From: a virus
Taxonomy: Duplodnaviria; Heunggongvirae; Uroviricota; Caudoviricetes
IMG/VR virus record: IMGVR_UViG_2541047817_000001
Span: 1-42,069 of that record
Direction: 5' to 3' (one strand)
DNA length: 42,069 bases
Shown here in pieces: positions 1 through 18,720 of the stretch. Position numbers and translations under genes: made by a program. Every line of letters begins with the position of its first letter. Position 1 is the first letter of the stretch. The notes under the pieces were generated by a model. It was not told the origin of the DNA and ran no database searches. It saw nothing but the letters and a program-made list of their open reading frames with translations.

Positions 1-1254
1 ATGCTGGAACAAATGGGCATTGCCGCGAAGCAAGCCTCGTATAAATTAGCGCAACTCTCCAGCCGCGAAAAAAATCGTGTGCTGGAAAAAATCGCCGATG
101 AACTGGAAGCACAAAGCGAAAGTATCCTCAACGCTAACGCGCAGGATGTTGCAGACGCGCGTGCCAATGGCCTTAGCGAAGCGATGCTTGACCGTCTGGC
201 ACTGACGCCCGCACGGCTGAAAGACATTGCCGACGATGTGCGCCAGGTGTGCAATCTCGCCGATCCGGTGGGGCAGGTAATCGATGGCGGCGTACTGGAC
301 AGCGGCCTGCGTCTTGAGCGTCGTCGCGTACCGCTGGGGGTGATTGGCGTGATTTATGAAGCGCGCCCGAACGTGACGGTTGATGTTGCTTCCCTGTGCC
401 TGAAAACCGGTAACGCGGTGATCCTGCGCGGCGGCAAAGAAACCTGTCGCACTAACGCTGCAACGGTAGCGGTGATTCAGGACGCCCTGAAATCCTGCGG
501 CTTACCGGCGGGTGCCGTGCAGGCAATTGATAATCCTGACCGTGCGCTGGTCAGTGAAATGCTGCGTATGGATAAATACATCGACATGCTGATCCCGCGC
601 GGTGGGGCTGGTTTGCATAAACTGTGCCGCGAGCAGTCGACAATCCCGGTGATCACAGGCGGTATAGGCGTATGCCATATTTACGTTGATGAAAGCGCAG
701 AGATCGCTGAAGCATTAAAAGTGATCGTCAACGCGAAAACTCAGCGACCGAGCACATGTAATACGGTAGAAACGTTGCTGGTAAATAAAAACATCGCAGA
801 TAGCTTCCTGCCCGCATTAAGCAAACAAATGGCGGAAAGCGGCGTGACGTTACACGCTGATGTAGCCGCGCTGGCGCAGTTGCAGGCAGGCCCCGCGAAG
901 GTGGTGGCTGTTAAAGCCGAAGAGTATGACGATGAGTTTCTGTCATTAGATTTGAACGTCAAAATCGTTAGCGATCTGGATGACGCCATTGCCCATATTC
1001 GTGAACACGGCACGCAACACTCCGATGCGATCCTGACCCGCGATATGCGCAACGCCCAGCGTTTTGTTAACGAAGTGGATTCCTCCGCTGTTTACGTTAA
1101 CGCCTCTACGCGTTTTACCGACGGCGGCCAGTTTGGTCTGGGGGCGGAAGTTGCGGTAAGCACACAAAAACTCCACGCGCGCGGCCCAATGGGGCTGGAA
1201 GCTCTGACCACTTATAAGTGGATCGGCATTGGTGATTACACCATTCGTGCGTAA
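1..1254 (+). CDS. proA: gamma-glutamyl phosphate reductase (complete, 417 aa)
   Basis: The 417-aa translation matches E. coli ProA along its whole length as I recall it ([20 protein letters not shown]... to ...[11 protein letters not shown]). ATG at position 1, stop at 1252-1254. Confidence 0.95.
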
Positions 1255-1368
1255 ATAAAACCGGGTGATGCAAAAGTAGCCATTTGATTCACAAGGCCAT
1301 TGACGCATCGCCCGGTTAGTTTTAACCTTGTCCACCGTGATTCACGTTCGTGAACATGTCCTTTCAGG

Positions 1369-1444
1369 GCCGATATAGCTCAGTTGGTAGAGCAGCGCAT
1401 TCGTAATGCGAAGGTCGTAGGTTCGACTCCTATTATCGGCACCA
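1369..1444 (+). tRNA. thrW: tRNA-Thr (anticodon CGU)
   Basis: 76-nt sequence GCCGATATAGCTCAGTTGGTAGAGC...GGTTCGACTCCTATTATCGGCACCA folds as a cloverleaf with anticodon CGT at positions 34-36 and an encoded CCA end. It lies directly downstream of proA, as thrW does in E. coli. Confidence 0.93.
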
Positions 1445-1458
1445 TTTAAATCAATAAA

Positions 1459-2622
1459 TTACACATCATTAGTACCTTCCTTATTTTTTGACTGGGACAA
1501 ATTTGGGACCGATGGGTTCAGGATCGAGTCTATTTGCCGTGCGTGTTCGGTAAGGTGATTAGGTGCGAGGTGAGCATATCGACGAACCATTTCGATAGAC
1601 TCCCAGCCTCCCATTTCCTGTAACACTGACAACGGGACTCCGGCTTGAACCAGCCAACTTGCCCAGGTGTGTCTCAAGTCGTGAAATCTGAAATCATCAA
1701 TACCTGCTCGTCTCAGCGCCGCTTTCCAGGCTGTGTTTGCGTCATACCGCATCTTCCTGACCGTTGGCGCTTTCGTTCCGTCTGGTTTGGTACAGCTTTC
1801 CTTGTAAACAAATACCCAACGGTGATGATTCCCGATTTGTTTTTTCAATACGCGACATGCAGTATCATTCAGCGCAACGCCAATTGCGCGGTTTGATTTA
1901 CTCTCTTCCGGGTTTATCCATGCCACCCGGCGCTGCATGTCTATTTGTTGCCATTCAAGGTTGATGATGTTCGAGCGTCTTAAGCCTGTTGCCAGTGCAA
2001 ATTCAACAACAGACTTTAATGGCTCCGGACATTCATCAATCAGCCTTTGTGCTTCATGAGGCTCCAGCCAGCGGATACGTTTATTCTTCGGTTGAGGCAC
2101 TTTAATAATTGGTGCCTTATCCAGCATTTTCCATTCACGCTCTGCGGCTCTTAGCAGGGCCTTTATAAATGAAAGATGCGTAGCCTTCGTTGCAACGGAC
2201 GCTGGTTTTGGCGTGTATTCTGGAACAGGTTTCCCTTTTTTTCTGCATGCTTCTGCCCTGAGTTTCCAGTTTTCCTCATGACGCCGGTTTGTCATTTTCT
2301 GCATCGCTGAATAAATTTTTGATTCAGTGATGTCTCTTAGTTGCATCCCTGCGAAATGTTGAAGCCAGAATCCGATCCGGCTTTTGTCATCGTCCAGTGA
2401 TTTTTTATGTGCTTTCTCTTCAAGCCACCTGACACACGCTTCCTCGAACGTTATATCAGGTATTTCACCAAGTTTGCTGACCCGCCATGCTTCAGCCTTT
2501 AGCTTGTCATGGAGTTCTGTCGCCTGCCTTTTGTCCTTTGTTCCAAGAGACTGTTTAAATCTTTTACCGTTCGGCAATGTGAAACTGGCGTACCATATTT
2601 CACCTCTGCGGAAGAGTGACAT
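1459..2622 (-). CDS. int: Tyrosine site-specific integrase, P22 Int-like (387 aa)
   Basis: 387-aa ORF starting [47 protein letters not shown], closely resembling P22 integrase as recalled. C-terminal catalytic region carries [10 protein letters not shown] and RRYAHL. Adjacent to thrW, the known P22 attachment site. Confidence 0.93.
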
Positions 2623-2849
2623 TTTCTTTCCTCTGTTATGCCATCACCCGCGCTCACCTGGACAGTATGCAGCGGAGACTGAAGAGCCGCAATGCAGGCT
2701 TGTCGTGTTGTGAGGTAAGGAGATTTATTCTTAGTGGGATCTTTGCGTGTTGCCTGAAGACGCCCTGTGCGTATCCAGTTAATGGCAGTCGGTCTGGATA
2801 TCTTGAGAAAATGACAGGCCTCATCGAGTGTGAGGCTGTATGGCTCCAT
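2499..2849 (-). CDS. xis: Excisionase (Xis), HTH type (116 aa)
   Basis: Internal ATG at 2847-2849 gives a 116-aa protein [31 protein letters not shown] with an AlpA/Xis-type helix-turn-helix. It sits immediately upstream of int and overlaps its 5' end. Start is inferred from TAATG overlap with the upstream gene. Confidence 0.6.
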
Positions 2850-3154
2850 TATTTCACCTCTTGCTGTGACATTGTTGAAAAATGGATACCAGCTCGTTGC
2901 TGCCAGACGATCCAACCGAGAGTCATATCCCATGCCATGTATTCGTTATCGCCGTTTTTTGCTCTCCGACGATCTACTAAGTCACCGAAACGCTTTTCCA
3001 TGAATAATTCATAAGCTTCGCGTTCATCTGGTTCTACTTCCAGAGATAGGAGTGCGATTTCATAAGCACGGCGCTCAATATCGTCTCGCACGTCAAGGCT
3101 GCTGATACGCTCTTTAATTTCTTTAATCAGTTCTTTGTCGGTAAAAGTGGTCAT
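2849..3154 (-). CDS. Hypothetical acidic phage protein (101 aa), YfdT-like by size and position
   Basis: ORF-track ORF; start overlaps the upstream gene stop (ATGA). Same length and position as yfdT in the K-12 CPS-53 block (assignment from memory). Confidence 0.55.
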   Translation of the reverse strand: MTTFTDKELIKEIKERISSLDVRDDIERRAYEIALLSLEVEPDEREAYELFMEKRFGDLVDRRRAKNGDNEYMAWDMTLGWIVWQQRAGIHFSTMSQQEVK

Positions 3155-3510
3155 TATGCTCCAGCCTCCGGTGCTTTTGGCATTACTGCCCAGTGAGTGA
3201 TATTGACGTTTTCAAGGTCCCCGACCTGAAATGTCCACTGCCATTCTCCGGTTTCTTTTTGTCCCCAGGTGTACCAGAGAGAACGCCAGCCAATTAGCCA
3301 GCCTTCTCCGTTAGCATCGAATAACAAAACACTTTCATTTGCTGGTGGCAGTTCAGTTGACACTGGTATTACTTTGTTTTCCTGTGCTGCACATTTAGCT
3401 TCAAGCGCATCGAATTTACGCACCAGGTATTCAGCATCTGTTTCATTTACTTTCAGATCTCGCGGTACACATCTCCCACGAAGAAACCCTTCCATTTCGA
3501 AAACATTCAT
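3154..3510 (-). CDS. DUF551-like phage protein (YfdS-like)
   Basis: ORF-track ORF 3154..3516; the likely start is the ATG at 3508-3510, which overlaps the upstream stop (ATGA). Trp-rich C-terminus (WLIGWRSLWYTWGQKETGEWQW) is typical of DUF551 prophage proteins. Confidence 0.6.
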   Translation of the reverse strand: MNVFEMEGFLRGRCVPRDLKVNETDAEYLVRKFDALEAKCAAQENKVIPVSTELPPANESVLLFDANGEGWLIGWRSLWYTWGQKETGEWQWTFQVGDLENVNITHWAVMPKAPEAGA

Positions 3511-4043
3511 GCGCATTTGCGTAACTCCGATAACTCGTTAAAGCGTTCCATAAACATCCCGTAGGCATGGCCCGGTGCCAGTGGAATCACGTTGAACATC
3601 TCTGTTGCCGGGATACCTTCCAGTACAGGCCAGAAAGAGCCATCATCAAGCCCGAGATCGCGGCGTTCGGTTGCCAGCATGATGAGATCGGCATATTTCA
3701 CGGGCGTACTCATAACTGGGGGTAACCCGTATTTCTCACGGATTACGGCGTCTATTTTTTCTTCCATTTGTTTATAGTCAGGAAGAAGGCGTTTCAGTGG
3801 TGCGGGAATGTCCTGGCAATACGCTTCTGTTGCATCATGCATTAACGCTTCAAAAGCAAATTCCTGCGGCACCAGCTGGCTGCAAAGAACCGCATGTTGG
3901 GCGACGCTGTAGAAGTGCGAAAGATGACCGGCAAAGCGACAGATATTTGAAAGGGAAACCGCGATATCGTTAATATCGATGTCGTCTTTATTTATCCTGT
4001 CATAATAAAAATGCTTCCCGGAAAAAGTTTTAATAAATGACAT
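3507..4043 (-). CDS. yfdR: HD-domain phosphohydrolase / 5'-deoxynucleotidase-like protein (YfdR-like, 178 aa)
   Basis: Internal start MSFIKTFSGKHFYYD gives 178 aa. Contains an H..HD-type motif (ALMHDATEAY) consistent with an HD hydrolase. Size and context match YfdR of CPS-53 (from memory). Confidence 0.75.
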   Translation of the reverse strand: MSFIKTFSGKHFYYDRINKDDIDINDIAVSLSNICRFAGHLSHFYSVAQHAVLCSQLVPQEFAFEALMHDATEAYCQDIPAPLKRLLPDYKQMEEKIDAVIREKYGLPPVMSTPVKYADLIMLATERRDLGLDDGSFWPVLEGIPATEMFNVIPLAPGHAYGMFMERFNELSELRKCA

Positions 4044-4170
4044 TTTGTTCTCCACGTATATGCGCTGCACCGCGCTGAATTCTGGCAAAAAGAATCCCTC
4101 ACCATCCGGCGATTATTGAGTAAATTACGTTTCCATAAATGCCCCCGCAGGGGCATTTGCAGTAATGAAA

Positions 4171-4995
4171 TCAGGCGGTGAAAGTACCAATAAAGGTTTC
4201 TACTTTGCTGTCCTTGAATTTCTCAACAAGCAGATCACGAAATTCGTTAGCCATTTCTTCCTGCACCGCCTCCAGCTGAATAATGCGCAGAACCAGTACA
4301 GGACGATCGCCAGTGATAATACTGAGGCGTAATTTAAACGGACGTTCTTTCAGACCTTCAAACGGAACGCATTTAAATTCAAATGCCACTGGCATAATGT
4401 CTTTGGTCTTCGCTTCGACAGACTCCATCAGGGAGCGTTTGCCGCTGAAGTCATTATCTTCAAAATCAGCGGTCTGGTTTGCTTCAATCGTGATTTTACG
4501 GACAGCCGCAGCCGCTTTTGTTGCCTGAATAGCGTCACCATTAGCATCAAAGCCCACAAGATAGTCGGCCCAGTCTTCAATCCATTCTGCTAGTGACTTC
4601 TGGGAGTTACGCTCGCCGTTAACAGACAACAGAGCAGAGAACGGTGCTGTCTTTTTCAGTTTGAGTGTGGCGGTGTTATCTGCGTGACCTGGTTCATCAA
4701 TAGTACCCAGGTTAAGCACACTGACGGCACGCATATTATCAGCATCGATAAAGCAGCGGGTGCCTTCATCTGCAAGATCTTTAGAATAACGGGTAAAGTC
4801 ATCGATGCTGGCAGTGGAAAGCGCACCACGGAAACGGAAGCGATTTAAATTAAATTTTTCCAGATCATGAATGCGGAAATTCTCAGGCAATGCCACAGCA
4901 TCGGCACCAATCTTACTGATAATTTCATTAACACCCTGAGCAGAAATAAGGGCATGGATTTGATTAATTGCGGTTGCGTCTAAGTTCTGAGACAT
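4171..4995 (-). CDS. yfdQ: DUF2303-family phage protein (YfdQ-like, 274 aa)
   Basis: 274-aa ORF in the position and of the size of yfdQ in the CPS-53 early block. Family assignment is from memory. Confidence 0.7.
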
Positions 4996-5060
4996 AATAA
5001 GTCCTCACTATATAAAGATATTCAGTGATGAGATAAATAATCAGTTAATTAAAAACGATA

Positions 5061-5423
5061 TTAACGACCTGCTGCGCGGAGTTTTCCGTCAGGTTCACCG
5101 GCAAGAGTCAGTAACTGTCCCTGGTCTTCCTGCAGAATAGTCAGGCGACCACCGCGATTGACATACATCGGCGTTTCGGTGGTGTCTTCTTCGGAAATTT
5201 TCCCGCGGTTAGTCGGGCGAACATATGAGAGTTTGTGTTTGATTTTCACTCGGTTCTCATCAAACGGTTCGATTTCCAGGTTGAGCGAGACCTTACCTTT
5301 GGTTTTCGTGTTCATCACACCGGAAGCGACTTCACTGAGAACTGCGCCGATTTTGGTTTCAAATACGCCGCCGTCCAGCTCCCCGATAAATGCCTGCACA
5401 TCAGTACTGCGTTCGCTAGCCAT
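5061..5423 (-). CDS. Hypothetical phage protein (YfdP-like, 120 aa)
   Basis: Start chosen at the ATG at 5421-5423 (MASERSTDVQAFIGEL...), preceded by a strong Shine-Dalgarno GAGGAG. The ORF-track ORF runs further upstream to 5741 but that extension lacks a ribosome-binding site. Confidence 0.6.
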   Translation of the reverse strand: MASERSTDVQAFIGELDGGVFETKIGAVLSEVASGVMNTKTKGKVSLNLEIEPFDENRVKIKHKLSYVRPTNRGKISEEDTTETPMYVNRGGRLTILQEDQGQLLTLAGEPDGKLRAAGR

Positions 5424-5891
5424 TTTGCTGCTCCTCATCATATCGACCCTGCAAGGTCGGTTAGTTTCTCCACAAAACAGAGAAGAACACCTGCGGTGAC
5501 TGCCGCCCGGATGGATTGGGTTATGAGCCCGTCGTCCGGTGATGCTCTTCTCTGTTTTGTAAAAAGGACGGTACCAGCCGGAAGCAAGGGTACAAGCTGG
5601 TACCGCCAAGACTACACACAGCATAAAGTTGTGGTGCCGGGTGCCTCCCGGTGCCTGGCGAAGGTTGCACACCAGGCGGGTGGGTATCCACAGAAGGTCG
5701 ACTGTCAGCCTCAACCTTAACCCGCGTGCGCTGAGCCGCATTCACCACAACGCTAAGGATTCTCTCTGGTTGAAAATACTTAGCTGTTATGTGCCTGCTT
5801 TTAGCCACATCAGGCGAGGTGGACCTAGTTATTCCCCAACAACAAGGATTCGGTTAATCTGGTTATCCCCAACAACGTAAAAGGAAAAGAA
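5424..5891. other. GC-rich, highly structured non-coding region (several hairpins plus tandem direct repeats); candidate structured RNA or regulatory region
   Basis: No ORF with a ribosome-binding site. Perfect 14-bp inverted repeat CAAAACAGAGAAGA (5473-5486) / TCTTCTCTGTTTTG (5546-5559); 9-bp hairpin GGTACCAGC...GCTGGTACC (about 5570-5604); CCGGG...CCCGG and GCCTGG...CCAGGC stems (about 5636-5677); tandem direct repeats GTTAT(T)CCCCAACAAC at 5828-5843 and 5862-5876. Confidence 0.4.
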
Positions 5892-6326
5892 ATGTCCGGT
5901 AATATCTATACGCTGTACAAATCCCACTGTGAAAATGTTGGAAAGTATCGGGGCATTGAAATCAGTGGGGTAGTGTCATCAGTCGAAATAAGCAAAGTTG
6001 AATCAAGGGCAACATTACTTACTCTTTTGGACCTTGTCTTACATGAGCACCGGAAGAAATTCGGCACTCCCTATAATCAGTTGAATGGGAAAAAGGCTCT
6101 GGTTCACCTTATTCTGATGAAGCATCACTGGATGCCAAAACAGATTAATGAGATGAAATTTGATGAACTTCTTCTTTCAATTCAGGATGAACTCACACTT
6201 GATAAAATAAGCGTAACCGCCCAGAAATTTTTAGATTATCGAGACTGGAGATCACAAATTCATCACTTTGATGATTTTGACGAAAATGAATGGGATCCTA
6301 ATTTGTCTGCACAATATCTAAAGTAA
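5892..6326 (+). CDS. AT-rich orphan hypothetical protein (144 aa)
   Basis: ATG at 5892 preceded by AGGA. Visibly AT-rich compared with flanking DNA. No recognisable domain. Transcribed convergently with the first gene of the leftward early operon. Confidence 0.55.
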   Translation: MSGNIYTLYKSHCENVGKYRGIEISGVVSSVEISKVESRATLLTLLDLVLHEHRKKFGTPYNQLNGKKALVHLILMKHHWMPKQINEMKFDELLLSIQDELTLDKISVTAQKFLDYRDWRSQIHHFDDFDENEWDPNLSAQYLK

Positions 6327-6504
6327 CATCCTGTGATAAAACCGTGATTTCCTGATCCAGTTTTTTTAAGGAGTCTATTGTTTCCTGTCGATAAGACAGC
6401 ACTTCACGAAGCTGGTTTATAGCTGCCAGCTTCTTTGTCATCCACTCATAAATTTCCTCATCTGTGTAGCCAGGCGCGACGATTTTGGGTTCTGTTTTGT
6501 GCAT
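6298..6504 (-). CDS. Small hypothetical protein (68 aa), first gene downstream of the putative PL
   Basis: ATG at 6502-6504 (MHKTEPKIVAPGYTDEEIYEW...) preceded by GAGGAG at a 7-nt spacing. The ORF-track ORF extends to 6519 using a TTG. Confidence 0.5.
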   Translation of the reverse strand: MHKTEPKIVAPGYTDEEIYEWMTKKLAAINQLREVLSYRQETIDSLKKLDQEITVLSQDVTLDIVQTN

Positions 6505-6562
6505 TTCACATCTCCTCAAGTTATCAGTTACTTGTTGATGGGGACCAGATTGTTAAAGAGCT

Positions 6563-6590
6563 AAGCGTCCTGTAGGGCGCTTTTTTGTTG
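6563..6590 (+). terminator. Rho-independent terminator-like hairpin
   Basis: AAGCGTCC-TGTA-GGGCGCTT stem-loop followed by TTTTTTGTTG. Confidence 0.4.
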
Positions 6591-6639
6591 CTAACGAATC
6601 ATCCTGGACTTCATATGCCCCAGGCGGCTACTTCGTGGG

Positions 6640-6738
6640 CGTCCTGCCTGTTCGTTGTTTCGCTTGGGTACATTATGTATCTCAAGGGTACATTGTCAAG
6701 TATAAAAAAACCTGCCGAAGCAGGTTCATAAACATTGA
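6640..6738 (-). promoter_or_regulatory. Putative OL/PL region with repeated GGTACA-type operator motifs
   Basis: GGGTACATT occurs twice (6666-6674 and 6686-6694) and TACATTATGTA is palindromic. The same half-site recurs in the cI-cro intergenic region. Confidence 0.4.
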
Positions 6739-7413
6739 TTAGGCTTTGATTTTGTATCTTCTTGGTTTTCCTGAGAAAATCACTGTACCAATTATAGAGC
6801 AATTACCGTTGATCTTAATGTAAGGCTCAGGCCAGTTTGGGTTTAACGCTTTGAGATAACGCTGTGTCCCATCTTCTATCAACCTTTTGAAGGTGGTTTC
6901 ACCTGTATCGTGCATCAATGCAATAACGTCGTCACCGTGGCAGGCAGGTACTTCAGGATCGACAAAAATCATGTCTCCCGGGCGGTACTCATCAATCATT
7001 GAATCACCTATCACCCGCAAGATATAAGTCATTTCCCCACAGGGTACAGGGCAGGGATACGTTTCTGCTGTGCTCAAATCAACCTCAGAATATCCAACTT
7101 CTTTCCATGCTCCGGCCTGTACCCATGATATGACAGGGACTAATGTGATTTGTTTATTAGTGATTGAAACATCAGGTTTTTTTGTGATGTTCGTTGTCTG
7201 GTGTTCTTGATCGAGCCATCCGACAGGCAGGTCGAAACATTTTTCGATGTGTCGTGCCATGCTGTCACCGATATTTTTAGTAGCACCATCTCCCATAAAC
7301 CTGCTGGTCTGGGTTGGCTCGCGATCAATCATAGTGGCAAAGGAAGAATTCCCGCCAACACCATCTCTCAGTTTTCTGGCGTTAGACCGCCGGATGTCAT
7401 GGATTGTTTTCAT
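6739..7413 (-). CDS. cI: cI-like prophage repressor (LexA/S24 peptidase family, 224 aa)
   Basis: C-terminal S24 autopeptidase signature with the catalytic Ser in VIGDSM and the Lys in TFKRL. Positively charged N-terminal DNA-binding region. Divergent from a Cro-like gene across an operator-rich intergenic region. Confidence 0.85.
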   Translation of the reverse strand: MKTIHDIRRSNARKLRDGVGGNSSFATMIDREPTQTSRFMGDGATKNIGDSMARHIEKCFDLPVGWLDQEHQTTNITKKPDVSITNKQITLVPVISWVQAGAWKEVGYSEVDLSTAETYPCPVPCGEMTYILRVIGDSMIDEYRPGDMIFVDPEVPACHGDDVIALMHDTGETTFKRLIEDGTQRYLKALNPNWPEPYIKINGNCSIIGTVIFSGKPRRYKIKA

Positions 7414-7503
7414 AACGAAATTAAAACCCTTGTACCGTTAAGGTACAAGTATCTTGAAGGTTCATTTCAATCATGTAATATGTACACCGGAGGTACATAT
7501 TGT
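7414..7503. promoter_or_regulatory. Putative OR / PRM-PR region
   Basis: Two palindromes: CTTGTACC-GTTAA-GGTACAAG (7429-7449) and ATATGTAC-ACCGGAG-GTACATAT (7478-7500), lying between the divergent cI and cro genes. Confidence 0.5.
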
Positions 7504-7704
7504 ATGAAAGCGTATTGGGACTCTTTAACCAAAGAACAGCAGGGCGAGTTGGCCGGAAAAGTTGGCTCAACACCTGGCTACTTACGGCTGGTTTTCAATG
7601 GCTATAAAAAAGCCAGTTTTGTGCTGGCTAAAAAACTTGAGCAATGCACGTCAGGTGCAATTACGAAATCTGACTTAAGACCGGATATCTATCCGAAAGA
7701 TTAG
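7504..7704 (+). CDS. cro: Cro-like repressor (66 aa)
   Basis: Internal ATG at 7504 gives MKAYWDSLTKEQQGELAGKVGSTPGYLRLVFNGYKKAS..., a small HTH protein divergent from cI. Resembles YdaS/Cro-type regulators. Confidence 0.75.
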   Translation: MKAYWDSLTKEQQGELAGKVGSTPGYLRLVFNGYKKASFVLAKKLEQCTSGAITKSDLRPDIYPKD

Positions 7705-7735
7705 CAGAACACTTTCAATTTTTAACCACAGAACG

Positions 7736-8305
7736 ATGAGGCTAATCGTGGGTAAGCATCACTGGAAAATAGAAAAACAGCCTGAGTGGTACGTGAAAGC
7801 TGTCAGAAAAACTATCGCGGCGTTGCCGGGTGGTTACGCTGAAGCGGCTGACTGGCTCGATGTAACAGAAAACGCTTTATTCAACCGCCTTCGTGCAGAT
7901 GGCGATCAGATTTTCCCGCTGGGATGGGCAATGGTTTTACAGCGTGCTGGTGGCACTCACTTCATTGCTGATGCTGTGGCGCAGTCTGCAAATGGCGTCT
8001 TTGTGTCTCTTCCTGACGTCGAGGATGTGGACAACGCCGATATTAACCAGCGTCTGCTGGAAGTCATTGAACAGATCGGCAGTTATTCAAAACAGATTCG
8101 TTCAGCAATCGAAGACGGTGTAGTGGAACCGCATGAGAAGACAGCAATTAACGACGAGCTGTATCTCTCAATTTCGAAGCTGCAGGAGCATGCAGCACTT
8201 GTCTACAAAATTTTTTGCATTTCAGAAAGTAATGACGCCCGCGAGTGTGCAGCTCCGGGCGTCGTGGCGTCGATTGCTTCTGGTTGTGGAGAAACTAACG
8301 CATGA
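7736..8305 (+). CDS. Putative CII/YdaT-like early regulatory protein (189 aa)
   Basis: Sits where cII sits in lambdoid phages, immediately after cro. Family assignment is tentative and the start codon is uncertain (a GTG at 7748 has a better ribosome-binding site). Confidence 0.4.
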
Positions 8306-8640
8306 ACAGTTTAACAACACACTACCGTCGCTCGCAACTGATTGCGCTTCCTGTACCGGGTGGAAAAGCGAAGGTGGAATATTGCTATGCAGTGAATGTA
8401 CCAGGTGACAGGGAAATTGTAACCCACAGCTTTGCAGAGTGGGCTGTGGGTGATTTCAACCGGCAGAAGGAGACAGTCCTTTGCGACAAGTTAACCGCTG
8501 GTTCAAAGATCACTACGGAGTGCCCGTCAGAGTCATTCGTTGGGAGCCGGAAACACAACGTGTTATCTACCTCCGCGAAGGCTATGAGCATGAGTGCTTC
8601 AGCCCGCTCGAACAGTTTCGTCGTAAATTCAGGGAAATAG
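8302..8640 (+). CDS. Hypothetical protein; coding frame ambiguous (possible frameshift or two overlapping small genes)
   Basis: The C-terminal part of the ORF-track ORF is low-complexity. A second frame from about 8481 (TTG, preceded by AAGGAG) to 8657 encodes a more protein-like sequence ([45 protein letters not shown]). Confidence 0.3.
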
Positions 8641-8649
8641 AGGTCGGTC

Positions 8650-9591
8650 ATGAGCACTAAATTAACCGGCTATGTATGGGATGGTTGCGCTGCATCAGGC
8701 ATGAAATTATCCAGCGTGGCAATTATGGCCCGCCTGGCTGATTTCAGTAATGACGAAGGTGTGTGCTGGCCATCAATTGAAACCATTGCCCGCCAGATTG
8801 GCGCGGGAATGAGTACCGTCAGAACGGCTATCGCACGGCTGGAAGCAGAAGGCTGGTTAACGCGTAAGGCGCGTCGCCAGGGTAACCGCAATGCGTCGAA
8901 TGTTTATCAGCTTAACGTTGCGAAGCTTCAGGCAGCGGCATTTTCTCAACTGTCAGATTCTGACCCGTCAAAATCTGACGCATCAAAATCTGACCCGTCA
9001 AAATTTGATGCGTCGAAATCTGGCAAAAAAGCGGGTTTTCACCCGTCAGAATCTGGCGGGGATCCGTCAGTAAAATCAAAACATGATCCGTCAGATAAAA
9101 AAACTTCTCGTCCGGACGCTTCGCAACCGGACACGCAGACGGCTGAACAGGAGTTTTTAACTCGCCATCCTGATGCGGTTGTATTCAGCCCTAAAAAGCG
9201 CCAGTGGGGAACGCAGGATGATTTGACCTGCGCACAGTGGCTCTGGAAAAAAATCATCGCCCTGTACGAGCAGGCCGCCGAATGTGACGGCGAGGTGGTT
9301 CGTCCCAAAGAACCGAACTGGACAGCCTGGGCAAACGAAATTCGCCTGATGTGTGTGCAGGATGGTCGTACTCACAAACAAATCTGCGAGATGTACAGCC
9401 GCGTCAGCCGCGATCCGTTCTGGTGCCGTAACGTGCTCAGCCCGTCGAAGCTGCGGGAAAAATGGGATGAGCTTTCCCTGCGCTTATCGCCGTCCGTCAG
9501 CACGTACACCGAAAAACGCGAAGACCCGTACTTCAAAGCCAGTTACGACAACGTGGACTACAGCCAGATCCCGGCAGGATTCAGGGGGTGA
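8650..9591 (+). CDS. Replication initiation protein (O-like, N-terminal HTH; 313 aa)
   Basis: N-terminal winged-helix/HTH (WPSIETIARQIGAGMSTVRTAIARLEAEGWL). Central low-complexity DPSKSDASKSD region encoded by iteron-like DNA repeats. Sits at the lambdoid O position. Confidence 0.7.
   Translation: MSTKLTGYVWDGCAASGMKLSSVAIMARLADFSNDEGVCWPSIETIARQIGAGMSTVRTAIARLEAEGWLTRKARRQGNRNASNVYQLNVAKLQAAAFSQLSDSDPSKSDASKSDPSKFDASKSGKKAGFHPSESGGDPSVKSKHDPSDKKTSRPDASQPDTQTAEQEFLTRHPDAVVFSPKKRQWGTQDDLTCAQWLWKKIIALYEQAAECDGEVVRPKEPNWTAWANEIRLMCVQDGRTHKQICEMYSRVSRDPFWCRNVLSPSKLREKWDELSLRLSPSVSTYTEKREDPYFKASYDNVDYSQIPAGFRG
8950..9100 (+). repeat. Iteron-like tandem direct repeats (putative phage replication origin) inside the replication gene
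   Basis: About five 15-bp repeats with core TCAAAATCTGAC (8950-9024), then degenerate CCGTCAG-containing repeats and an A-rich tract (GATAAAAAAA) near 9090-9100. Confidence 0.55.
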
Positions 9592-9593
9592 TC

Positions 9594-10082
9594 ATGAGTC
9601 TTTTGAATGAAGTTCAGAAATACATTGAAGCCCATCCGGGGTGTACTTCCGGAGACATTGCGGATGCTTTTGCAGGTTACTCACGGCAGCGCGTTCTGCA
9701 GTCAGCAAGCAAGTTACGTCAGAGTGGGCGTGTGGCTCACCGTTGTGAAGGAGATACACGCAGACATTTCCCTCGCCTGACTGAGAGAGCGCAGGAGCCG
9801 GAACCACAACCAGTTCGTGAAACCAGACCTGTGCGCAATTTCTATGTCGGCACTAACGATCCACGGGTAATTTTGTGCCTGACCCGCCAGGCTGAAGAAC
9901 TGGAGTCCAGGGGCTTATACCGTCGTGCTGCAACCGTGTGGATGGCGGCATTCCGTGAAAGCCACTCCCAGCCAGAACGAAACAATTTTCTGGAGCGTCG
10001 TGAGCGGTGCTTACGGAAAAGCAGCAAGCGCGCGGCATCGGGTGAAGAGTGGTATCTGTCAGGGAATTACGTGGGGGCTTAA
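9594..10082 (+). CDS. PerC-family-like transcriptional regulator (162 aa)
   Basis: ATG at 9594 preceded by GGGGG. The motif AEELESRGLYRRAATVWMAAF resembles the PerC signature; N-terminus looks like a winged helix. Confidence 0.55.
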   Translation: MSLLNEVQKYIEAHPGCTSGDIADAFAGYSRQRVLQSASKLRQSGRVAHRCEGDTRRHFPRLTERAQEPEPQPVRETRPVRNFYVGTNDPRVILCLTRQAEELESRGLYRRAATVWMAAFRESHSQPERNNFLERRERCLRKSSKRAASGEEWYLSGNYVGA

Positions 10083-13644: not shown

Positions 13645-14529
13645 TTATATTGGGCGCTTTGAATTCGATTTAAAGCGTCTTCCACTTATTCCAGAAACCC
13701 AAATGTCTTCCTCAAGAAAGTCAAGAAGGGCTTTTATTTCTTTTTTTGATGAAGGCATGACAATTTTCTCAACACCGCCAACTATTATGGTTTGTAAGGG
13801 GAAATTAACTTTAGCAGCTTCGGATTTAAACTTTGACATATTTTGGGGTGTTAGCATCCCAGTCTGATTTATTAGTGTTACTTTATTTCTTATCACTGTA
13901 TCTGCAACGGATTTTAGATCAAAACCTTGGGGAGTAGAAAATATACTAAGTTGACTAAATGCATTAAGTTCTTGGTCAGTAGCAGCAGAAAAATAGGACG
14001 ACATGTCAAAAATGCTTCTTAGATTAAAGAAACTCTTAAATCGTATTGTATCATTGATAATTATTGCAACTAGTTTATCATCAACATTAAAACCGATGCT
14101 ATTAGCTTTACTAAAGGTAGTTTTGCTTGCAAAAAGCTTTCCAAAGAATGATTTTGAGGTATCTAAGATTTGTTTTTTGTTGAAAGTTTGTAGTGCAATA
14201 ATATTGGGGTTTGCTGGCGCGTCAACACCAACAAATAATGCTTTAATATAACCAATATCAATTTGGCTAGGATCCCAGATAGGCACGGCGGTAGGCCTAT
14301 TGACTGCGTCAATCAGGCGTGCAGAATCAGTAAAGTTTTGTATTTCAAAACACTCACTATGTTTTGGTGTATAACCGGCATAGAATGGTATCATATTGTT
14401 ATGATGACTTTCAAAATATTGACGCTGTTGTTGGAAAATGGCCGTAACAGAAGTACTTGCTGTTGCATCAAGTTCGACTCTAACAATTCTCGTTGCAATT
14501 GTATTATCTATTACTGCAAAAAGTGCCAT
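13645..14529 (-). CDS. Hypothetical protein (294 aa); second gene of the AT-rich antisense island; candidate defence component
   Basis: ORF with no recognisable motif, visibly AT-rich, on the opposite strand to the late operon, 5 nt downstream of the membrane-protein gene. Confidence 0.6.
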   Translation of the reverse strand: MALFAVIDNTIATRIVRVELDATASTSVTAIFQQQRQYFESHHNNMIPFYAGYTPKHSECFEIQNFTDSARLIDAVNRPTAVPIWDPSQIDIGYIKALFVGVDAPANPNIIALQTFNKKQILDTSKSFFGKLFASKTTFSKANSIGFNVDDKLVAIIINDTIRFKSFFNLRSIFDMSSYFSAATDQELNAFSQLSIFSTPQGFDLKSVADTVIRNKVTLINQTGMLTPQNMSKFKSEAAKVNFPLQTIIVGGVEKIVMPSSKKEIKALLDFLEEDIWVSGISGRRFKSNSKRPI

Positions 14530-14534
14530 GGTTA

Positions 14535-15056
14535 TTATCCTTTAACATGTAGAAATGTGTAGTCTGTTAATTGAATAACTGTAAATTTGATATCTTTAAT
14601 ATCAGTAATAACTGATTTAGAAATCAATACAAAACCTACGCCGGTGTCATCTTCAGCTTCGTAAAATTTATAACCGATAAGTGACAATACTGGGTTAAAG
14701 TTATAGTTCTCGGAAAAGCTGATGTAAAATAACAATGATAAATAAAAGAATAACGCATATGCTTTATTTTCAGCAATAGAATCTGTTCCTAGGAGAGGGA
14801 ATAAATAGCTTAAGAAATAATTAGTTACTTCTTTGTTAGCGGGAGAAACTGAACTAATATTTTTTGTCAGAGGTTCAAGTTGTTTCTCAGCATATTGAAT
14901 CAGGCCTATTGCTAATAACCAACTTGCTATGCCAACGCATAAGCTATATTGCATCAGCCAAACCGTATCTTTTACATATCCAATAAAAAATAGAGTTGCG
15001 CAAACAGGTGCAATTGAGCTGGCTGTTAATAATAAGCGTGCTAATTTGTTCATCAT
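14535..15056 (-). CDS. Integral membrane protein (173 aa, about 4 TM helices); first gene of the AT-rich antisense island
   Basis: Hydrophobic segments at roughly residues 8-28, 36-56, 80-91 and 100-118. AAGGA ribosome-binding site ahead of the ATG at 15054-15056. Visibly AT-rich. Confidence 0.6.
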   Translation of the reverse strand: MMNKLARLLLTASSIAPVCATLFFIGYVKDTVWLMQYSLCVGIASWLLAIGLIQYAEKQLEPLTKNISSVSPANKEVTNYFLSYLFPLLGTDSIAENKAYALFFYLSLLFYISFSENYNFNPVLSLIGYKFYEAEDDTGVGFVLISKSVITDIKDIKFTVIQLTDYTFLHVKG

Positions 15057-15717: not shown

Positions 15718-16194
15718 ATGCAGGTACTAAATTCCCAGCGTAAAGCTTTCCTCGATATGGTGGCATGGTCAGAAGGAACGGATAACGGGCGACAACCGAC
15801 ACGTAACCACGGTTATGATGTTATTGTTGGCGGCGAACTGTTCACTGATTACTCCGATCACCCTCGCAAACTTGTCACGCTAAACCCCAAACTCAAATCA
15901 ACAGCCGCCGGGCGTTATCAGCTTCTTTCACGCTGGTGGGATGCTTACCGTAAACAGCTTGGTTTGAAAGACTTCTCCCCCAAAAGCCAGGACGCAGTGG
16001 CATTGCAGCAGATTAAAGAGCGTGGCGCTTTACCGATGATTGATCGCGGTGATATCCGTCAGGCTATCGATCGTTGCAGCAATATCTGGGCGTCATTACC
16101 CGGCGCTGGTTACGGTCAGTATGAACATAAAATCGGTGACCTGATTGCCCGATTCAAAGAGGCTGGCGGGGTGGTAAATGAAGTTGAGCTATAA
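15718..16194 (+). CDS. R: Endolysin, lambda R-type lytic transglycosylase (158 aa)
   Basis: Near-identical to lambda R as recalled (NSQRKAFLDMVAWSEGTDNGRQPTRNHGYDVIVGGELFTDYSDHPRK...). Confidence 0.9.
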   Translation: MQVLNSQRKAFLDMVAWSEGTDNGRQPTRNHGYDVIVGGELFTDYSDHPRKLVTLNPKLKSTAAGRYQLLSRWWDAYRKQLGLKDFSPKSQDAVALQQIKERGALPMIDRGDIRQAIDRCSNIWASLPGAGYGQYEHKIGDLIARFKEAGGVVNEVEL

Positions 16195-16639
16195 GCTGGT
16201 TATCGTTGCTTTCTTCGTTACTGTCATTGGTTCTTTCATCTGTTCAGTGAATCGTTACCACAATAAAGCCATTGAATACAAAATGCAGCGTGATGAGAAT
16301 GCTATGGCATTAGATTCGGCTATGGCGACCATCTTTGATATGCAGAAGCGTCAACGTGACGTAGCAGAACTTGACGCCAGATACACAAAGGAGCTTGCTG
16401 ATGCTAATGCGACTATCGAAAGTCTCCGTGCTGATGTTTCTTCTGGGCGTAAGCGCCTGCAAGTCGCCGCCACCTGTGCAAAATCAACGACCAGAGCCAG
16501 CGGCATGGGCGATGGAGAAAGCCCAGGACTTACAGCAGATGCTGAATTCAATTATTACCGTCTCCGAAGTGGAATCGACAGGATAACCGCACAGGTTAAT
16601 TACCTACAGGAATACATCAGAACTCAATGCATGAATTAA
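16178..16639 (+). CDS. Rz: Rz i-spanin (153 aa)
   Basis: N-terminal TM anchor followed by a coiled-coil region; homologous to lambda Rz (NRYHNKAIEYKMQRDENA..., QRDVAELDARYTKELADA...). Confidence 0.8.
   Translation: MKLSYKLVIVAFFVTVIGSFICSVNRYHNKAIEYKMQRDENAMALDSAMATIFDMQKRQRDVAELDARYTKELADANATIESLRADVSSGRKRLQVAATCAKSTTRASGMGDGESPGLTADAEFNYYRLRSGIDRITAQVNYLQEYIRTQCMN
16401..16586 (+). CDS. Rz1: Rz1 o-spanin lipoprotein, embedded in Rz in the +1 frame
   Basis: Signal peptide with lipobox (MRLSKVSVLMFLLGVSAC) followed by a proline-rich mature segment (KSPPPVQNQRPEPAAW), all within the Rz gene. The start could be the ATG at 16401 or 16407. Confidence 0.65.
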   Translation: MLMRLSKVSVLMFLLGVSACKSPPPVQNQRPEPAAWAMEKAQDLQQMLNSIITVSEVESTG

Positions 16640-17248
16640 AAGAGGCAGATTGATCGTGTTTTCGAAGTGTTATACCACGCCCGTTCTGTTAATTTGGCAA
16701 AATCTGTTCTGATGCAATGAGTATCGAAAGATTTATTGGACTGGTTGCTTTGGTTATCACTGTTATCGCTGGAGTTGTTGGCCTAGGGCGTATCCGTGGC
16801 ACTAGTAAAAGAAGAGGTTAAAACTGCTCTGTTATACACTGAAGTTAACGCAGCGGCTAAGCACTCAGCAGCAGGACACCGTGTAGAGGCAACGGAAGAG
16901 GCCAGAAATATACAGCAGACTATTAACCATATTCCTGGTGACTCTGTTGAGCGCGGTATGCATAAGAAATACAAACGTACAATTTGAAGTGGTATATTTT
17001 TCTTGTTAGTAGATGAATATAATATACCACACAGAATACGATATAATTATTGCTCATGCTTACCTAAATATGAAAAACAATAAAGTTATAAGTAGACAAG
17101 TGTTTTGTTACTTTTAATAATTGATGTGATGTATATATTAAGATTGAAAAATTTAATCATTCTTTCCACATATAAATTAAGTGGTTCCCTTAGCTTGTCA
17201 TTTTTGATGATAAGTGAGAGAATATGAACATTATATGATGGAGATAAT

Positions 17249-17560
17249 ATGTCAAACATAAAAATCAAACAAGCTATTGAAAAGATTGCGGAGTTCAGAG
17301 CAGCATCTGCTGCGATGGCTGATGCTCACATGGTTCTTATTACAGAGCTATTGAACTCAATTGAGGATATCCGCAAAAACTCTGGTGATAATCTCTCTGA
17401 GTTTGAAAAAGGACAGGTTGCTCTCTACATAAAAATTAGCCCAGTTGTGAAAAATGGAATTTCGAGTATTGAAAAATATAATGAGTCTTTAAGTTCAGAC
17501 TATGTTGAGGCTATGAACTCCTTATCTAAAATTGCGGGAGGGAATTCAAATGTCGATTGA
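17249..17560 (+). CDS. Hypothetical soluble helical protein (103 aa); gene 1 of the AT-rich three-gene cassette
   Basis: ATG at 17249 preceded by GGAG. Visibly AT-rich. No recognisable motif. Confidence 0.55.
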   Translation: MSNIKIKQAIEKIAEFRAASAAMADAHMVLITELLNSIEDIRKNSGDNLSEFEKGQVALYIKISPVVKNGISSIEKYNESLSSDYVEAMNSLSKIAGGNSNVD

Positions 17561-17936
17561 AGATGTTGGAAGCATCCTTGATAGATTAAAAGTAGCCAGG
17601 ATCGAAAATAAAAAAATTGAAGAGTCAGCTGGAAAAGCAGAGGAAAATGCTGTTAACTCTAAGCATACTGATGGTAAAACACGAAGCGCCTTAACTATTA
17701 CGTTTCTCTGGTTCTTTTTTTGCCTTCTTATTTTTAGCTGTCTTTTTGTTCTTTGGTATAATAATTCTGTTGTGAATTGGGCTTTAGAGTTAAAGAGCAA
17801 AGGTGTTGATGATTACGTTCAATATTTAAAGCCACTCGAGCTGGAAAAGGTATTGTCAATAATGATTACTGCCCTTGGTACTTCATTAGGATTTATAATT
17901 GGGTATTATTTTAAGGATAAAGAAAATCATTCTTAA
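17550..17936 (+). CDS. Small membrane protein (128 aa, 2 TM); gene 2 of the AT-rich three-gene cassette
   Basis: ATG at 17550 preceded by GGGAGGG; overlaps the end of gene 1, suggesting translational coupling. TM segments ALTITFLWFFFCLLIFSCLFVLWY and VLSIMITALGTSLGFIIGYYF. Confidence 0.55.
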   Translation: MSIEDVGSILDRLKVARIENKKIEESAGKAEENAVNSKHTDGKTRSALTITFLWFFFCLLIFSCLFVLWYNNSVVNWALELKSKGVDDYVQYLKPLELEKVLSIMITALGTSLGFIIGYYFKDKENHS

Positions 17937-17981
17937 TATAGAGTTATCTCTAAAGATAACGAATTTTAATAGGAGGGCAGA

Positions 17982-18284
17982 ATGTCTGAACTGAATTATG
18001 AAGCAATAGGTCGCTGCAAAATCCTTAATGAAAAGATCAAAGATCTTCATGCTGAACGAATGAAAGCTATTGGTGATTTACGTACTGCTGTCTATGCCCT
18101 TCATCAGAAAGGGAATGTAAACCTCATCCCACCAGAAATTGTTGAATTCAACCCCCAATCGCTTACATCCCTTGTAGAGAAGGTTGGTCACTATGATGGT
18201 GAGCTGATGCGAGCTGTACATGAGTACAACAACTGGTGTGTAGAAGCAGGCGAGAAACCCGTAAAACTTATAAAGCTAGACTGA
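17982..18284 (+). CDS. Hypothetical protein (100 aa); gene 3 of the AT-rich three-gene cassette
   Basis: ATG at 17982 preceded by AGGAGGG. Visibly AT-rich. No recognisable motif. Confidence 0.55.
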   Translation: MSELNYEAIGRCKILNEKIKDLHAERMKAIGDLRTAVYALHQKGNVNLIPPEIVEFNPQSLTSLVEKVGHYDGELMRAVHEYNNWCVEAGEKPVKLIKLD

Positions 18285-18309
18285 AACAACAAATTTATGC
18301 AAATCATTA

Positions 18310-18335
18310 GCCTCGCACATGCGGGGCTTTTTTAT
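18310..18335 (+). terminator. Rho-independent terminator after the three-gene cassette
   Basis: GCCTCGC-ACAT-GCGGGGC stem-loop followed by TTTTTT. Confidence 0.5.
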
Positions 18336-18369
18336 GCGCACCACACATGCACATCAAAGAGAGTCTTCA

Positions 18370-18720
18370 ATGCCGCCACGAATCCCAAAAGCCTGCCGTG
18401 TTCGCGGTTGCCGCCATACCACGACTGACCCGTCAGGCTACTGCGAAAGCCACAAAAGCGAAGGCTGGAAGCAATACAAACCTAGACAATCCCGTCATCA
18501 GCGCGGCTACGGTTCGAAGTGGGACAGTATCCGCGCGCGTGTCCTGAAGCGTGACAAAGGCCTGTGTCAGTTATGTCTGCGTGCCGGTGTGGTGCGTGAG
18601 GCGAAAGCCGTTGACCACATCATCCCTAAAGCGCATGGCGGCACTGATGCCGACTGTAATCTGCAGAGTCTGTGCTGGTCGTGTCATAAGGCGAAGACGG
18701 CCCGTGAACGGCTGAAGTGA
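18370..18720 (+). CDS. HNH endonuclease (packaging-associated)
   Basis: Cys/His HNH signature (CQLCLRAGVVREAKAVDHIIPKAHGG...NLQSLCWSCHKAK), immediately upstream of the small terminase gene. Start chosen at the ATG at 18370 (MPPRIPK). Confidence 0.8.
   Translation: MPPRIPKACRVRGCRHTTTDPSGYCESHKSEGWKQYKPRQSRHQRGYGSKWDSIRARVLKRDKGLCQLCLRAGVVREAKAVDHIIPKAHGGTDADCNLQSLCWSCHKAKTARERLK

Follow-up and report, generated by a model that had tools for sequence, protein, structure and literature searches.

An overlapping gene pair at the lysis/packaging junction of an Escherichia coli prophage as a candidate two-component membrane-acting exclusion module

Gene content of the spanin-HNH interval

We analyzed a 42,069-nucleotide (nt) stretch of viral DNA, IMG/VR record IMGVR_UViG_2541047817_000001 (hereafter the window), focusing on three small plus-strand genes, designated g1, g2 and g3, located between its lysis and packaging genes. 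g1 (17249-17560) encodes a soluble protein of 103 amino acids (aa), predicted to be all-helical, which is the fast-evolving partner of g2. The latter (17550-17936, with its ATG at 17550) overlaps g1 by 11 nt and encodes a protein of 128 aa, a putative effector predicted to form an inner-membrane helical hairpin. After a gap of 45 nt containing no terminator follows g3 (17982-18284), which encodes a 100-aa soluble helical hairpin of the family of Sb55 from phage ST64B (phrog_4827). Two hydrophobic segments were found in g2 (residues ~48-70 and ~101-121) and none in g1 or g3. Each gene is preceded by a Shine-Dalgarno site: GGAG at 17240-17243 for g1, GGGAGGG at 17536-17542 for g2 and AGGAGGG at 17968-17974 for g3. 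Because no terminator separates g2 from g3, the three genes are probably co-transcribed in this window. The initial annotation, made by reading the sequence, had described three small genes with ribosome-binding sites, the first two overlapping, in a markedly AT-rich region, and these features are all present. The G+C content of 16900-18100 is 0.29-0.36, compared with 0.45-0.52 for the lysis genes and 0.52-0.60 for the HNH and terminase genes, while that of g3 is intermediate (0.416).

The genes are flanked by an AT-rich leader (16988-17248, plus strand, G+C ~0.29) and an intrinsic terminator (18309-18335, plus strand), the latter separating the cargo from the HNH endonuclease gene (18370-18720) and consisting of an 8-bp stem with six G-C pairs (18309-18328) followed by a T-run. 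The leader contains two sigma-70-like sites (17093-17121 and 17195-17223), and is a putative promoter region of the g1-g2 pair. It also contains the inverted repeat previously noted as 9 bp, which is in fact perfect over 10 bp (16989-16998 and 17021-17030). A comparable repeat occurred in 8% of dinucleotide shuffles of 16640-18355, which puts the observed one near chance level, and the corresponding leaders in eight related loci contain none. The repeat therefore exists but does not qualify as a conserved control element, and its assignment as an operator or terminator was rejected.

The window is an ST64B/SfV/e14-like myovirus prophage of E. coli, with the gene order Q antiterminator, cargo slot, holin (15388), endolysin (15718), Rz/Rz1 (16178-16639), g1-g3 region, HNH (18370-18720), TerS, TerL and portal. 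Among E. coli prophages that share these flanks, the interval from the end of Rz (~16639) to ~18355-18370 is variable. The full three-gene cassette was detected in 2 of 5426 complete E. coli genomes, compared with 2780 for the flanking modules, and the Rz-HNH interval elsewhere encodes a DUF6236 protein or a trypsin-like peptidase, or is filled by unrelated hypothetical genes; some of this cargo lies on the other strand. This presence/absence comparison bears out the earlier suggestion of accessory cargo at a site corresponding to that of the lambda bor gene, downstream of Rz, which we take to be the equivalent position.

Separate distributions of g3 and the g1-g2 pair

To define the unit of inheritance, homologues of g2 were gathered from phage, plasmid, genome and viral-contig collections, giving 103 clusters at 90% identity and 57 loci (distinguished below by L numbers), and the collected loci were searched with g1, g2 and g3 using tblastn. 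Every g2 homologue with upstream sequence is preceded by an open reading frame (ORF) of ~90-133 aa (163 aa in P2-like loci), which either shares 8-14 nt with g2 or stops no more than 28 nt short of it. All but one of the 40 distinct proteins encoded there (39 of 40) fall into one hidden Markov model (HMM) family with g1; the partner in Vibrio vulnificus was not reached by the g1-family HMM, being too diverged. A word-indexed homologue search with g1 returned only its own cluster, and the g1 family was recovered from the genomic neighbors of g2.

The gene g3 adjoins g1-g2 only in near-identical E. coli copies (L001 and L019-L021), and was not adjacent in any of ~38 other distinct g1-g2 loci. 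It is found without g1-g2 in Salmonella phage ST64B, in E. coli M9-type mouse strains and in prophages of Proteus and Hafnia, where it directly precedes an HNH gene (or an equivalent small gene), followed by genes for P27-type TerS, TerL, portal, S78 protease and HK97-type capsid. It matches phrog_4827 with E 4.9e-44 and shares 86% identity over 100 aa with Sb55 of ST64B, and Sb55 occupies the same site upstream of HNH and a P27-type small terminase, followed by a homologous terminator, with the difference that Sb55 is preceded by Sb54 and g3 of the window by g1-g2. Conservation also differs, with a mean column identity of 77% for g3 from E. coli to Proteus and a median pairwise identity of only 22% for g1. 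The AlphaFold2 model of g3 (pLDDT, the predicted local distance difference test score, 88.3) is a plain helical hairpin with helices at residues 6-43 and 58-86, and no specific structural neighbors of this model were found. The possibility that g3 is a diverged paralogue of g1, raised by a shared C-terminal Y-N motif, was rejected by profile comparison (hhalign probability 0.85%).

The terminator downstream of g3 gave a similar picture. Terminator-like sites follow g3 in five of six loci; the site in E. coli M9 and ST64B is homologous to that of the window, while the Hafnia g3 loci have a different one. The same terminator and HNH leader directly follow g2 in L022 and L024 (6492-6560), both of which lack g3. 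The terminator and ~40-nt HNH leader (18309-18370 in the window) are thus conserved across differing cargo, with either g3 or g2 directly upstream, and are missing from L058-L061, in which the cargo differs or is encoded on the other strand, so that the terminator seems to travel with plus-strand cargo. The Rho-independent terminator reported earlier is therefore present, but since its homologue follows g2 directly in loci without g3, it appears to mark the right edge of the cargo slot rather than the end of a three-gene operon.

These distributions show that the region consists of two independent accessory units in a variable stretch bounded by the spanin genes on one side and the HNH/terminase genes on the other: a g1+g2 unit of ~0.7 kb, which is a conserved, translationally coupled two-gene moron, and g3, an independent single-gene unit of the Sb55 family that travels with the packaging module. 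The earlier proposal of one compact three-gene system did not hold, as g3 is missing from ~38 other g2 loci and occurs without the pair elsewhere. The arrangement of a membrane protein flanked by two soluble proteins, which had been read as functionally meaningful, is an accident of two adjacent modules, because g3 rarely neighbors the pair and occurs without it. For annotation, the functional unit would be g1+g2 rather than three genes, with g3 a conserved phage gene of the Sb55 family.

Conservation, architecture and genomic contexts of the pair

An exhaustive profile search extended the g2 family to 226 representative clusters at 50% identity (E≤1e-3), nearly all of ~100-150 aa, including Vibrio species as well as marine and other metagenomic sequences. 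Two remote members of the superfamily were inspected, and both have an adjacent upstream ORF of 86-95 aa on phage-like contigs. The dN/dS ratios were 0.04-0.08 for g2 and 0.08-0.44 for g1, indicating that both are real genes under purifying selection. Divergence is unevenly distributed: median pairwise identity is 22% for g1, 18% for residues 1-40 of g2 and 57% for the rest of g2. As called, the g1 homologues of 131-133 aa in L007, L016-L018, L054 and L056 begin with an additional hydrophobic stretch of ~35 aa (such as ...VIFVNLFRAIFFPLFALWMLWK...), and an internal Met aligns with the usual start; a membrane anchor and a mis-called start are both possible.

The initial annotation had found no recognizable motif in the three proteins. 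This is borne out for Pfam, NCBIfam and PADLOC v2.0 (2023), the last of which includes 3HP, CBASS 2TM effectors and Kiwa; g1, g2 and g3 had no significant match in any of them, although each falls into an uncharacterized PHROG family (phrog_21707, phrog_20796 and phrog_4827, respectively). Assignment of g2 to the PADLOC family 2TM_IV (E 0.0028) was rejected, as only 2 of 38 family members matched. Profile searches of the PDB returned only generic helical bundles for the g1 family and generic helical or membrane noise for the g2 family, and literature searches found no papers for the protein accessions or PHROG identifiers.

The g2 protein consists of a variable N-terminal helix (residues 1-47), a first transmembrane helix (TM1, 48-70), a loop of ~30 aa, a second transmembrane helix (TM2, 101-121) and a YYFK tail. 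TM2 carries a glycine zipper, G110xxxG114xxxG118, within the family signature LGxxLGFxIGYYFK. Among 51 diverse representatives, Y120, F121 and K122 are invariant and R45, F52, F57, N71, G114, F115, G118 and Y119 nearly so. The AlphaFold2 model, built from the family alignment, is a helical hairpin with helices at residues 4-83 and 98-126 (pLDDT 76.5). Its charges are distributed as expected for an N-in/C-in protein with ~30 aa of loop in the periplasm. We therefore predict g2 to be an N-in/C-in two-helix hairpin, which would place its variable N-terminus in the cytoplasm.

To survey genomic context, Pfam was used to assign the ORFs around the pair in 38 distinct loci, three on the upstream side and as many as four on the downstream side. 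Upstream of the pair are Rz/Rz1/LysC spanins, four types of endolysin (GH19, GH24, M15 and GH108) and at least five holin families; downstream are HNH genes, three small-terminase families, three large-terminase families and portals. Many unrelated phage lineages thus carry the pair at their lysis/packaging junction, yet it is not tied to this position. In the P2-like locus L047 it lies between the replication gene gpA and the portal gene gpQ, and in P2-like L042 it adjoins gpQ, followed by P2-type terminase, scaffold and capsid genes. The gpA-gpQ interval of P2 is a defense hotspot holding old/tin (Rousset et al., PMC9122126). As a cargo slot, the spanin-to-HNH junction of ST64B/SfV-like prophages is comparable to it. 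In Serratia the pair is found in a small chromosomal island beside icd, and one phage contig has it next to an insertion sequence (IS), with no other gene beside it on that strand.

In Vibrio vulnificus (L010, JBECNB010000047.1), the pair (764-1484) forms one superintegron cassette of 945 bp with attC-like repeats at both ends, in an array (1-7484) of 12 such repeats spaced 450-970 nt apart. The neighboring cassette (1646-2551, minus strand) encodes a PD-Lambda-3_B-like/Hypoth_Ymh HEPN protein (PADLOC E 1e-91). In Providencia sp. SKLX146130 (L018), AbiLi/AbiLii (AAA_21 and RloB, 6729-8705) lie 390 nt downstream of g1-g2, with a phage tail tube gene upstream, suggesting a small defense cluster inside a prophage.

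In most loci the pair has features of a moron in the sense of Hendrix and Juhala: deviating composition, presence/absence polymorphism between related phages, and a terminator of its own. Its G+C content is below that of the flanks in 38 of 39 loci, by a mean of 12.9 points, and in 31 of 39 the 200 nt downstream of g2 include a terminator-like hairpin. The lambda bor moron resembles it in position, deviating composition, own terminator and presence/absence polymorphism; bor, however, consists of one lipoprotein gene in the opposite orientation, while here two co-oriented genes encode one cytoplasmic and one integral membrane protein.

The left edge of the block is marked by a spanin-like remnant (16717-16987, plus strand), with an N-terminal transmembrane part at 16717-16821 and a C-terminal part at 16796-16987 in the +1 frame. 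By BLASTP it matches a 91-aa gene preceding g1-g2 in Klebsiella phage P7641, over residues 1-31 with 55% identity and over residues 31-87 with 33% identity (E 7e-10), and it also matches phrog_1026, 'Rz-like spanin' (E 4.6e-10). It is a frameshifted second i-spanin-like gene. Since an intact Rz/Rz1 is already present at 16178-16639, the remnant looks like a recombination scar, the pair having probably been imported along with the last part of a lysis cassette from elsewhere. A P7641-like lysis/packaging block containing the pair was also observed at 1872-8369 of Klebsiella pneumoniae plasmid pBio30 (L072, NZ_CP093857.1), a 316-kb conjugative IncF-typed record; it could be a prophage integrated in the plasmid or an assembly join.

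Candidate functions of the pair

We tentatively favor a reading in which g1-g2 is a minimal two-component moron that acts at the membrane in exclusion or abortive infection, with g3 an unrelated Sb55-family gene. This reading draws on the strict pairing of the two genes, their autonomy and mobility, their moron features, their independence of lysis type, the effector-like g2, the variable surfaces of both proteins, the precedent of Sucellos (below), and the defense-associated sites in which the pair is found. These sites comprise the P2 gpA-gpQ hotspot, AbiLi/AbiLii nearby in Providencia, the PD-Lambda-3_B-like neighbor in Vibrio, and a Kiwa system in the other slot of the same prophage.

In the proposed mechanism, g2 would insert in the inner membrane as an N-in/C-in hairpin, and the TM2 glycine zipper would drive its homo-oligomerization into a pore or other membrane-perturbing assembly. 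g1 would be the cognate cytoplasmic helical regulator or specificity subunit, binding the hypervariable N-terminal helix of g2. The prophage would express the pair in the lysogen; once g1 sensed an infection or became titrated away, g2 would be gated, causing depolarization or a block at the membrane. Other phages would thereby be excluded or their infection aborted, making the pair a minimal functional analogue of RexAB and Sucellos.

Of these two systems, lambda RexAB is likewise prophage-borne and has a soluble gene directly upstream of a small polytopic inner-membrane gene, with RexA thought to be the infection sensor and RexB the membrane effector. It differs in size (RexA 279 aa, g1 103 aa), in the number of transmembrane helices (four in RexB, of 144 aa; two in g2), and in location, rexAB being in the immunity region and g1-g2 at the lysis/packaging junction. 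Sucellos (SclA/SclB), which is known from prophages as well, has its two genes within a single cassette of the Vibrio cholerae superintegron. It has its own promoter, SclB is predicted to form a pore in the membrane, neither gene is dispensable, and the phenotype is abortive infection, in which the infected cells die (bioRxiv 10.1101/2024.07.02.601686). The V. vulnificus g1-g2 cassette shares the two-gene, one-cassette organization, and the pair is likewise prophage-borne. Compared by description only, the Sucellos cassette is 4 kb including an IS and the g1-g2 cassette 945 bp. Sucellos is described as structurally RexAB-like and is reported mostly in Salmonella and V. cholerae, neither of which is among the named species of the 103 g2 clusters, many of which are nameless. 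Cassette size, description and host range thus argue, indirectly, against the identity of g1-g2 with Sucellos.

Several observations weigh against the exclusion reading. The promoter-like sites in the leader match at the consensus level only and are no more numerous than in shuffled sequence, and the upstream regions of the pair are not conserved among the eight related loci compared. Co-variation of g1 with the g2 N-terminus is weak (partial correlation 0.15, both being saturated at ~20% identity), and pore formation is deduced from a motif and a monomer model with a predicted template modeling score (pTM) of 0.46. No homology to any defense, toxin-antitoxin or holin family was found in PADLOC v2.0, which is older than Sucellos, or in Pfam, NCBIfam or the PDB. 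Homology to RexAB in particular was rejected, with hhalign probabilities of 0.2% for the g1 family against RexA and 0.3% for the g2 family against RexB. Known defense genes are immediate neighbors in only ~3-4 of ~38 loci, so that the association is suggestive rather than statistical. Finally, all lambdoid-type loci have the pair co-oriented with the late operon, directly after the spanins; the pair would then also be transcribed late, which equally fits a role in the lytic cycle.

Among the alternatives, an addiction-type toxin-antitoxin module, in which g2 is a membrane toxin and g1 the labile antitoxin encoded upstream, stabilizing the carrier element with defense as a secondary effect, is unlikely but the strongest contender. 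A pair of small genes that overlap, the upstream one evolving faster, would fit such a module, and the layout resembles that of CptB/CptA (YgfY/YgfX), in which a soluble protein of ~90 aa is encoded upstream of a two-transmembrane protein of ~135 aa. In CptA, however, the transmembrane helices are N-terminal and the effector part cytoplasmic, and neither g1 nor g2 matched the CptA/CptB families in Pfam or NCBIfam. The occurrence of the pair as a Vibrio superintegron cassette points the same way, as toxin-antitoxin cassettes are the commonest recognizable system of superintegron arrays, which they stabilize (bioRxiv 10.1101/2024.07.02.601686). Against this explanation, no toxin or antitoxin family in Pfam, NCBIfam or PADLOC matched the pair, g1 has no recognizable DNA-binding domain typical of type II antitoxins, and the pair is frequently lost or replaced among close prophages, which would be unexpected for a strongly addictive module. 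A toxin-antitoxin module and abortive-infection defense are not separable by sequence alone.

Somewhat less probable is a late accessory role in the lytic cycle, in which the pair would modulate lysis timing, membrane energization or superinfection in the manner of an antiholin or holin. The pair mostly lies directly after the spanins, co-oriented with lysis and packaging genes, and the spanin remnant suggests that it moved with the end of a lysis cassette. In pinholin S21, a glycine-zipper transmembrane helix (TMD2) mediates oligomeric hole formation, and g2 is similarly a small two-transmembrane protein with a glycine zipper, though g1 and g2 had no match to pinholin families in Pfam or NCBIfam. 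This role is difficult to reconcile with the association of the pair with at least five holin families and its lack of a tie to any holin or endolysin family, or with its presence far from lysis genes in the P2 gpA-gpQ interval, the Vibrio cassette, the Serratia icd island and the IS-side phage contig. The great majority of prophages with the same lysis and packaging modules lack the pair, its composition and own terminator are those of a moron, and no holin Pfam or PHROG lysis family was matched.

Lysogenic conversion, by which a bor-like membrane protein would aid the host in envelope stress, colonization or host-factor resistance with no phage-phage conflict, is improbable. It would account for the position shared with lambda bor, downstream of Rz, and for the heterogeneous cargo of the slot, such as the trypsin-like peptidase and the DUF6236 protein. 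The family is found in phages of many hosts and settings, marine Vibrio and metagenomic phage contigs among them, which argues instead for a phage-centered rather than a host-niche function. In addition, the obligatory hypervariable cytoplasmic partner would be hard to explain, and only the ~30-aa loop of g2 lies outside the cytoplasm. Least credible of all is a single three-component system of g1, g2 and g3, for which the common orientation, the terminator-free 45-nt gap and the single terminator after g3 would speak, given that g3 is absent from the other g1-g2 loci, occurs without the pair, is far more conserved than g1, is unrelated to it and has a different G+C content.

Returning to exclusion or abortive infection, the pair is a reasonable candidate, one of many such, for a minimal RexAB-like defense module, as judged from sequence; it is widespread and uncharacterized. 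A broader proposal is possible, though more doubtful than the exclusion reading itself: that g1-g2 founds an undescribed ~0.7-kb two-component abortive-infection or exclusion system, with a new family of glycine-zipper two-helix pores and a hypervariable partner of ~100 aa conferring specificity, spread over phages, P2-type hotspots and integron cassettes of Enterobacterales, Vibrio and beyond, and among the smallest two-gene defense systems. If the pair is indeed a defense or exclusion module, it would add a new, very small membrane effector family to prophage immune systems, and the signature LGxxLGFxIGYYFK could be used in DefenseFinder or PADLOC. The combination of a hypervariable partner and an invariant effector would then offer a tractable model for the coupling of infection sensing to a membrane pore.

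Between its Q antiterminator and holin genes, the same prophage contains a second AT-rich island (13645-15056, minus strand, G+C 0.30-0.35), which encodes a complete Kiwa system: KwaA (14535-15056, minus strand, 173 aa, PADLOC E 1.9e-83) and KwaB (13645-14529, minus strand, 294 aa, PADLOC E 3.5e-150). Like g1-g2, Kiwa pairs a membrane protein with a soluble partner, but its membrane gene comes first and its proteins are larger, and g1 and g2 had no match to the KwaA and KwaB models. A near-identical copy of the prophage is present in E. coli VTB97420v (L001), at the thrW tRNA gene beside proA, and carries a KAP-family nucleoside triphosphatase in the slot held by Kiwa in the window. The early region of this copy (9369-10066) contains an IS1 transposase and a frameshifted gene, so that the VTB97420v prophage may be defective.

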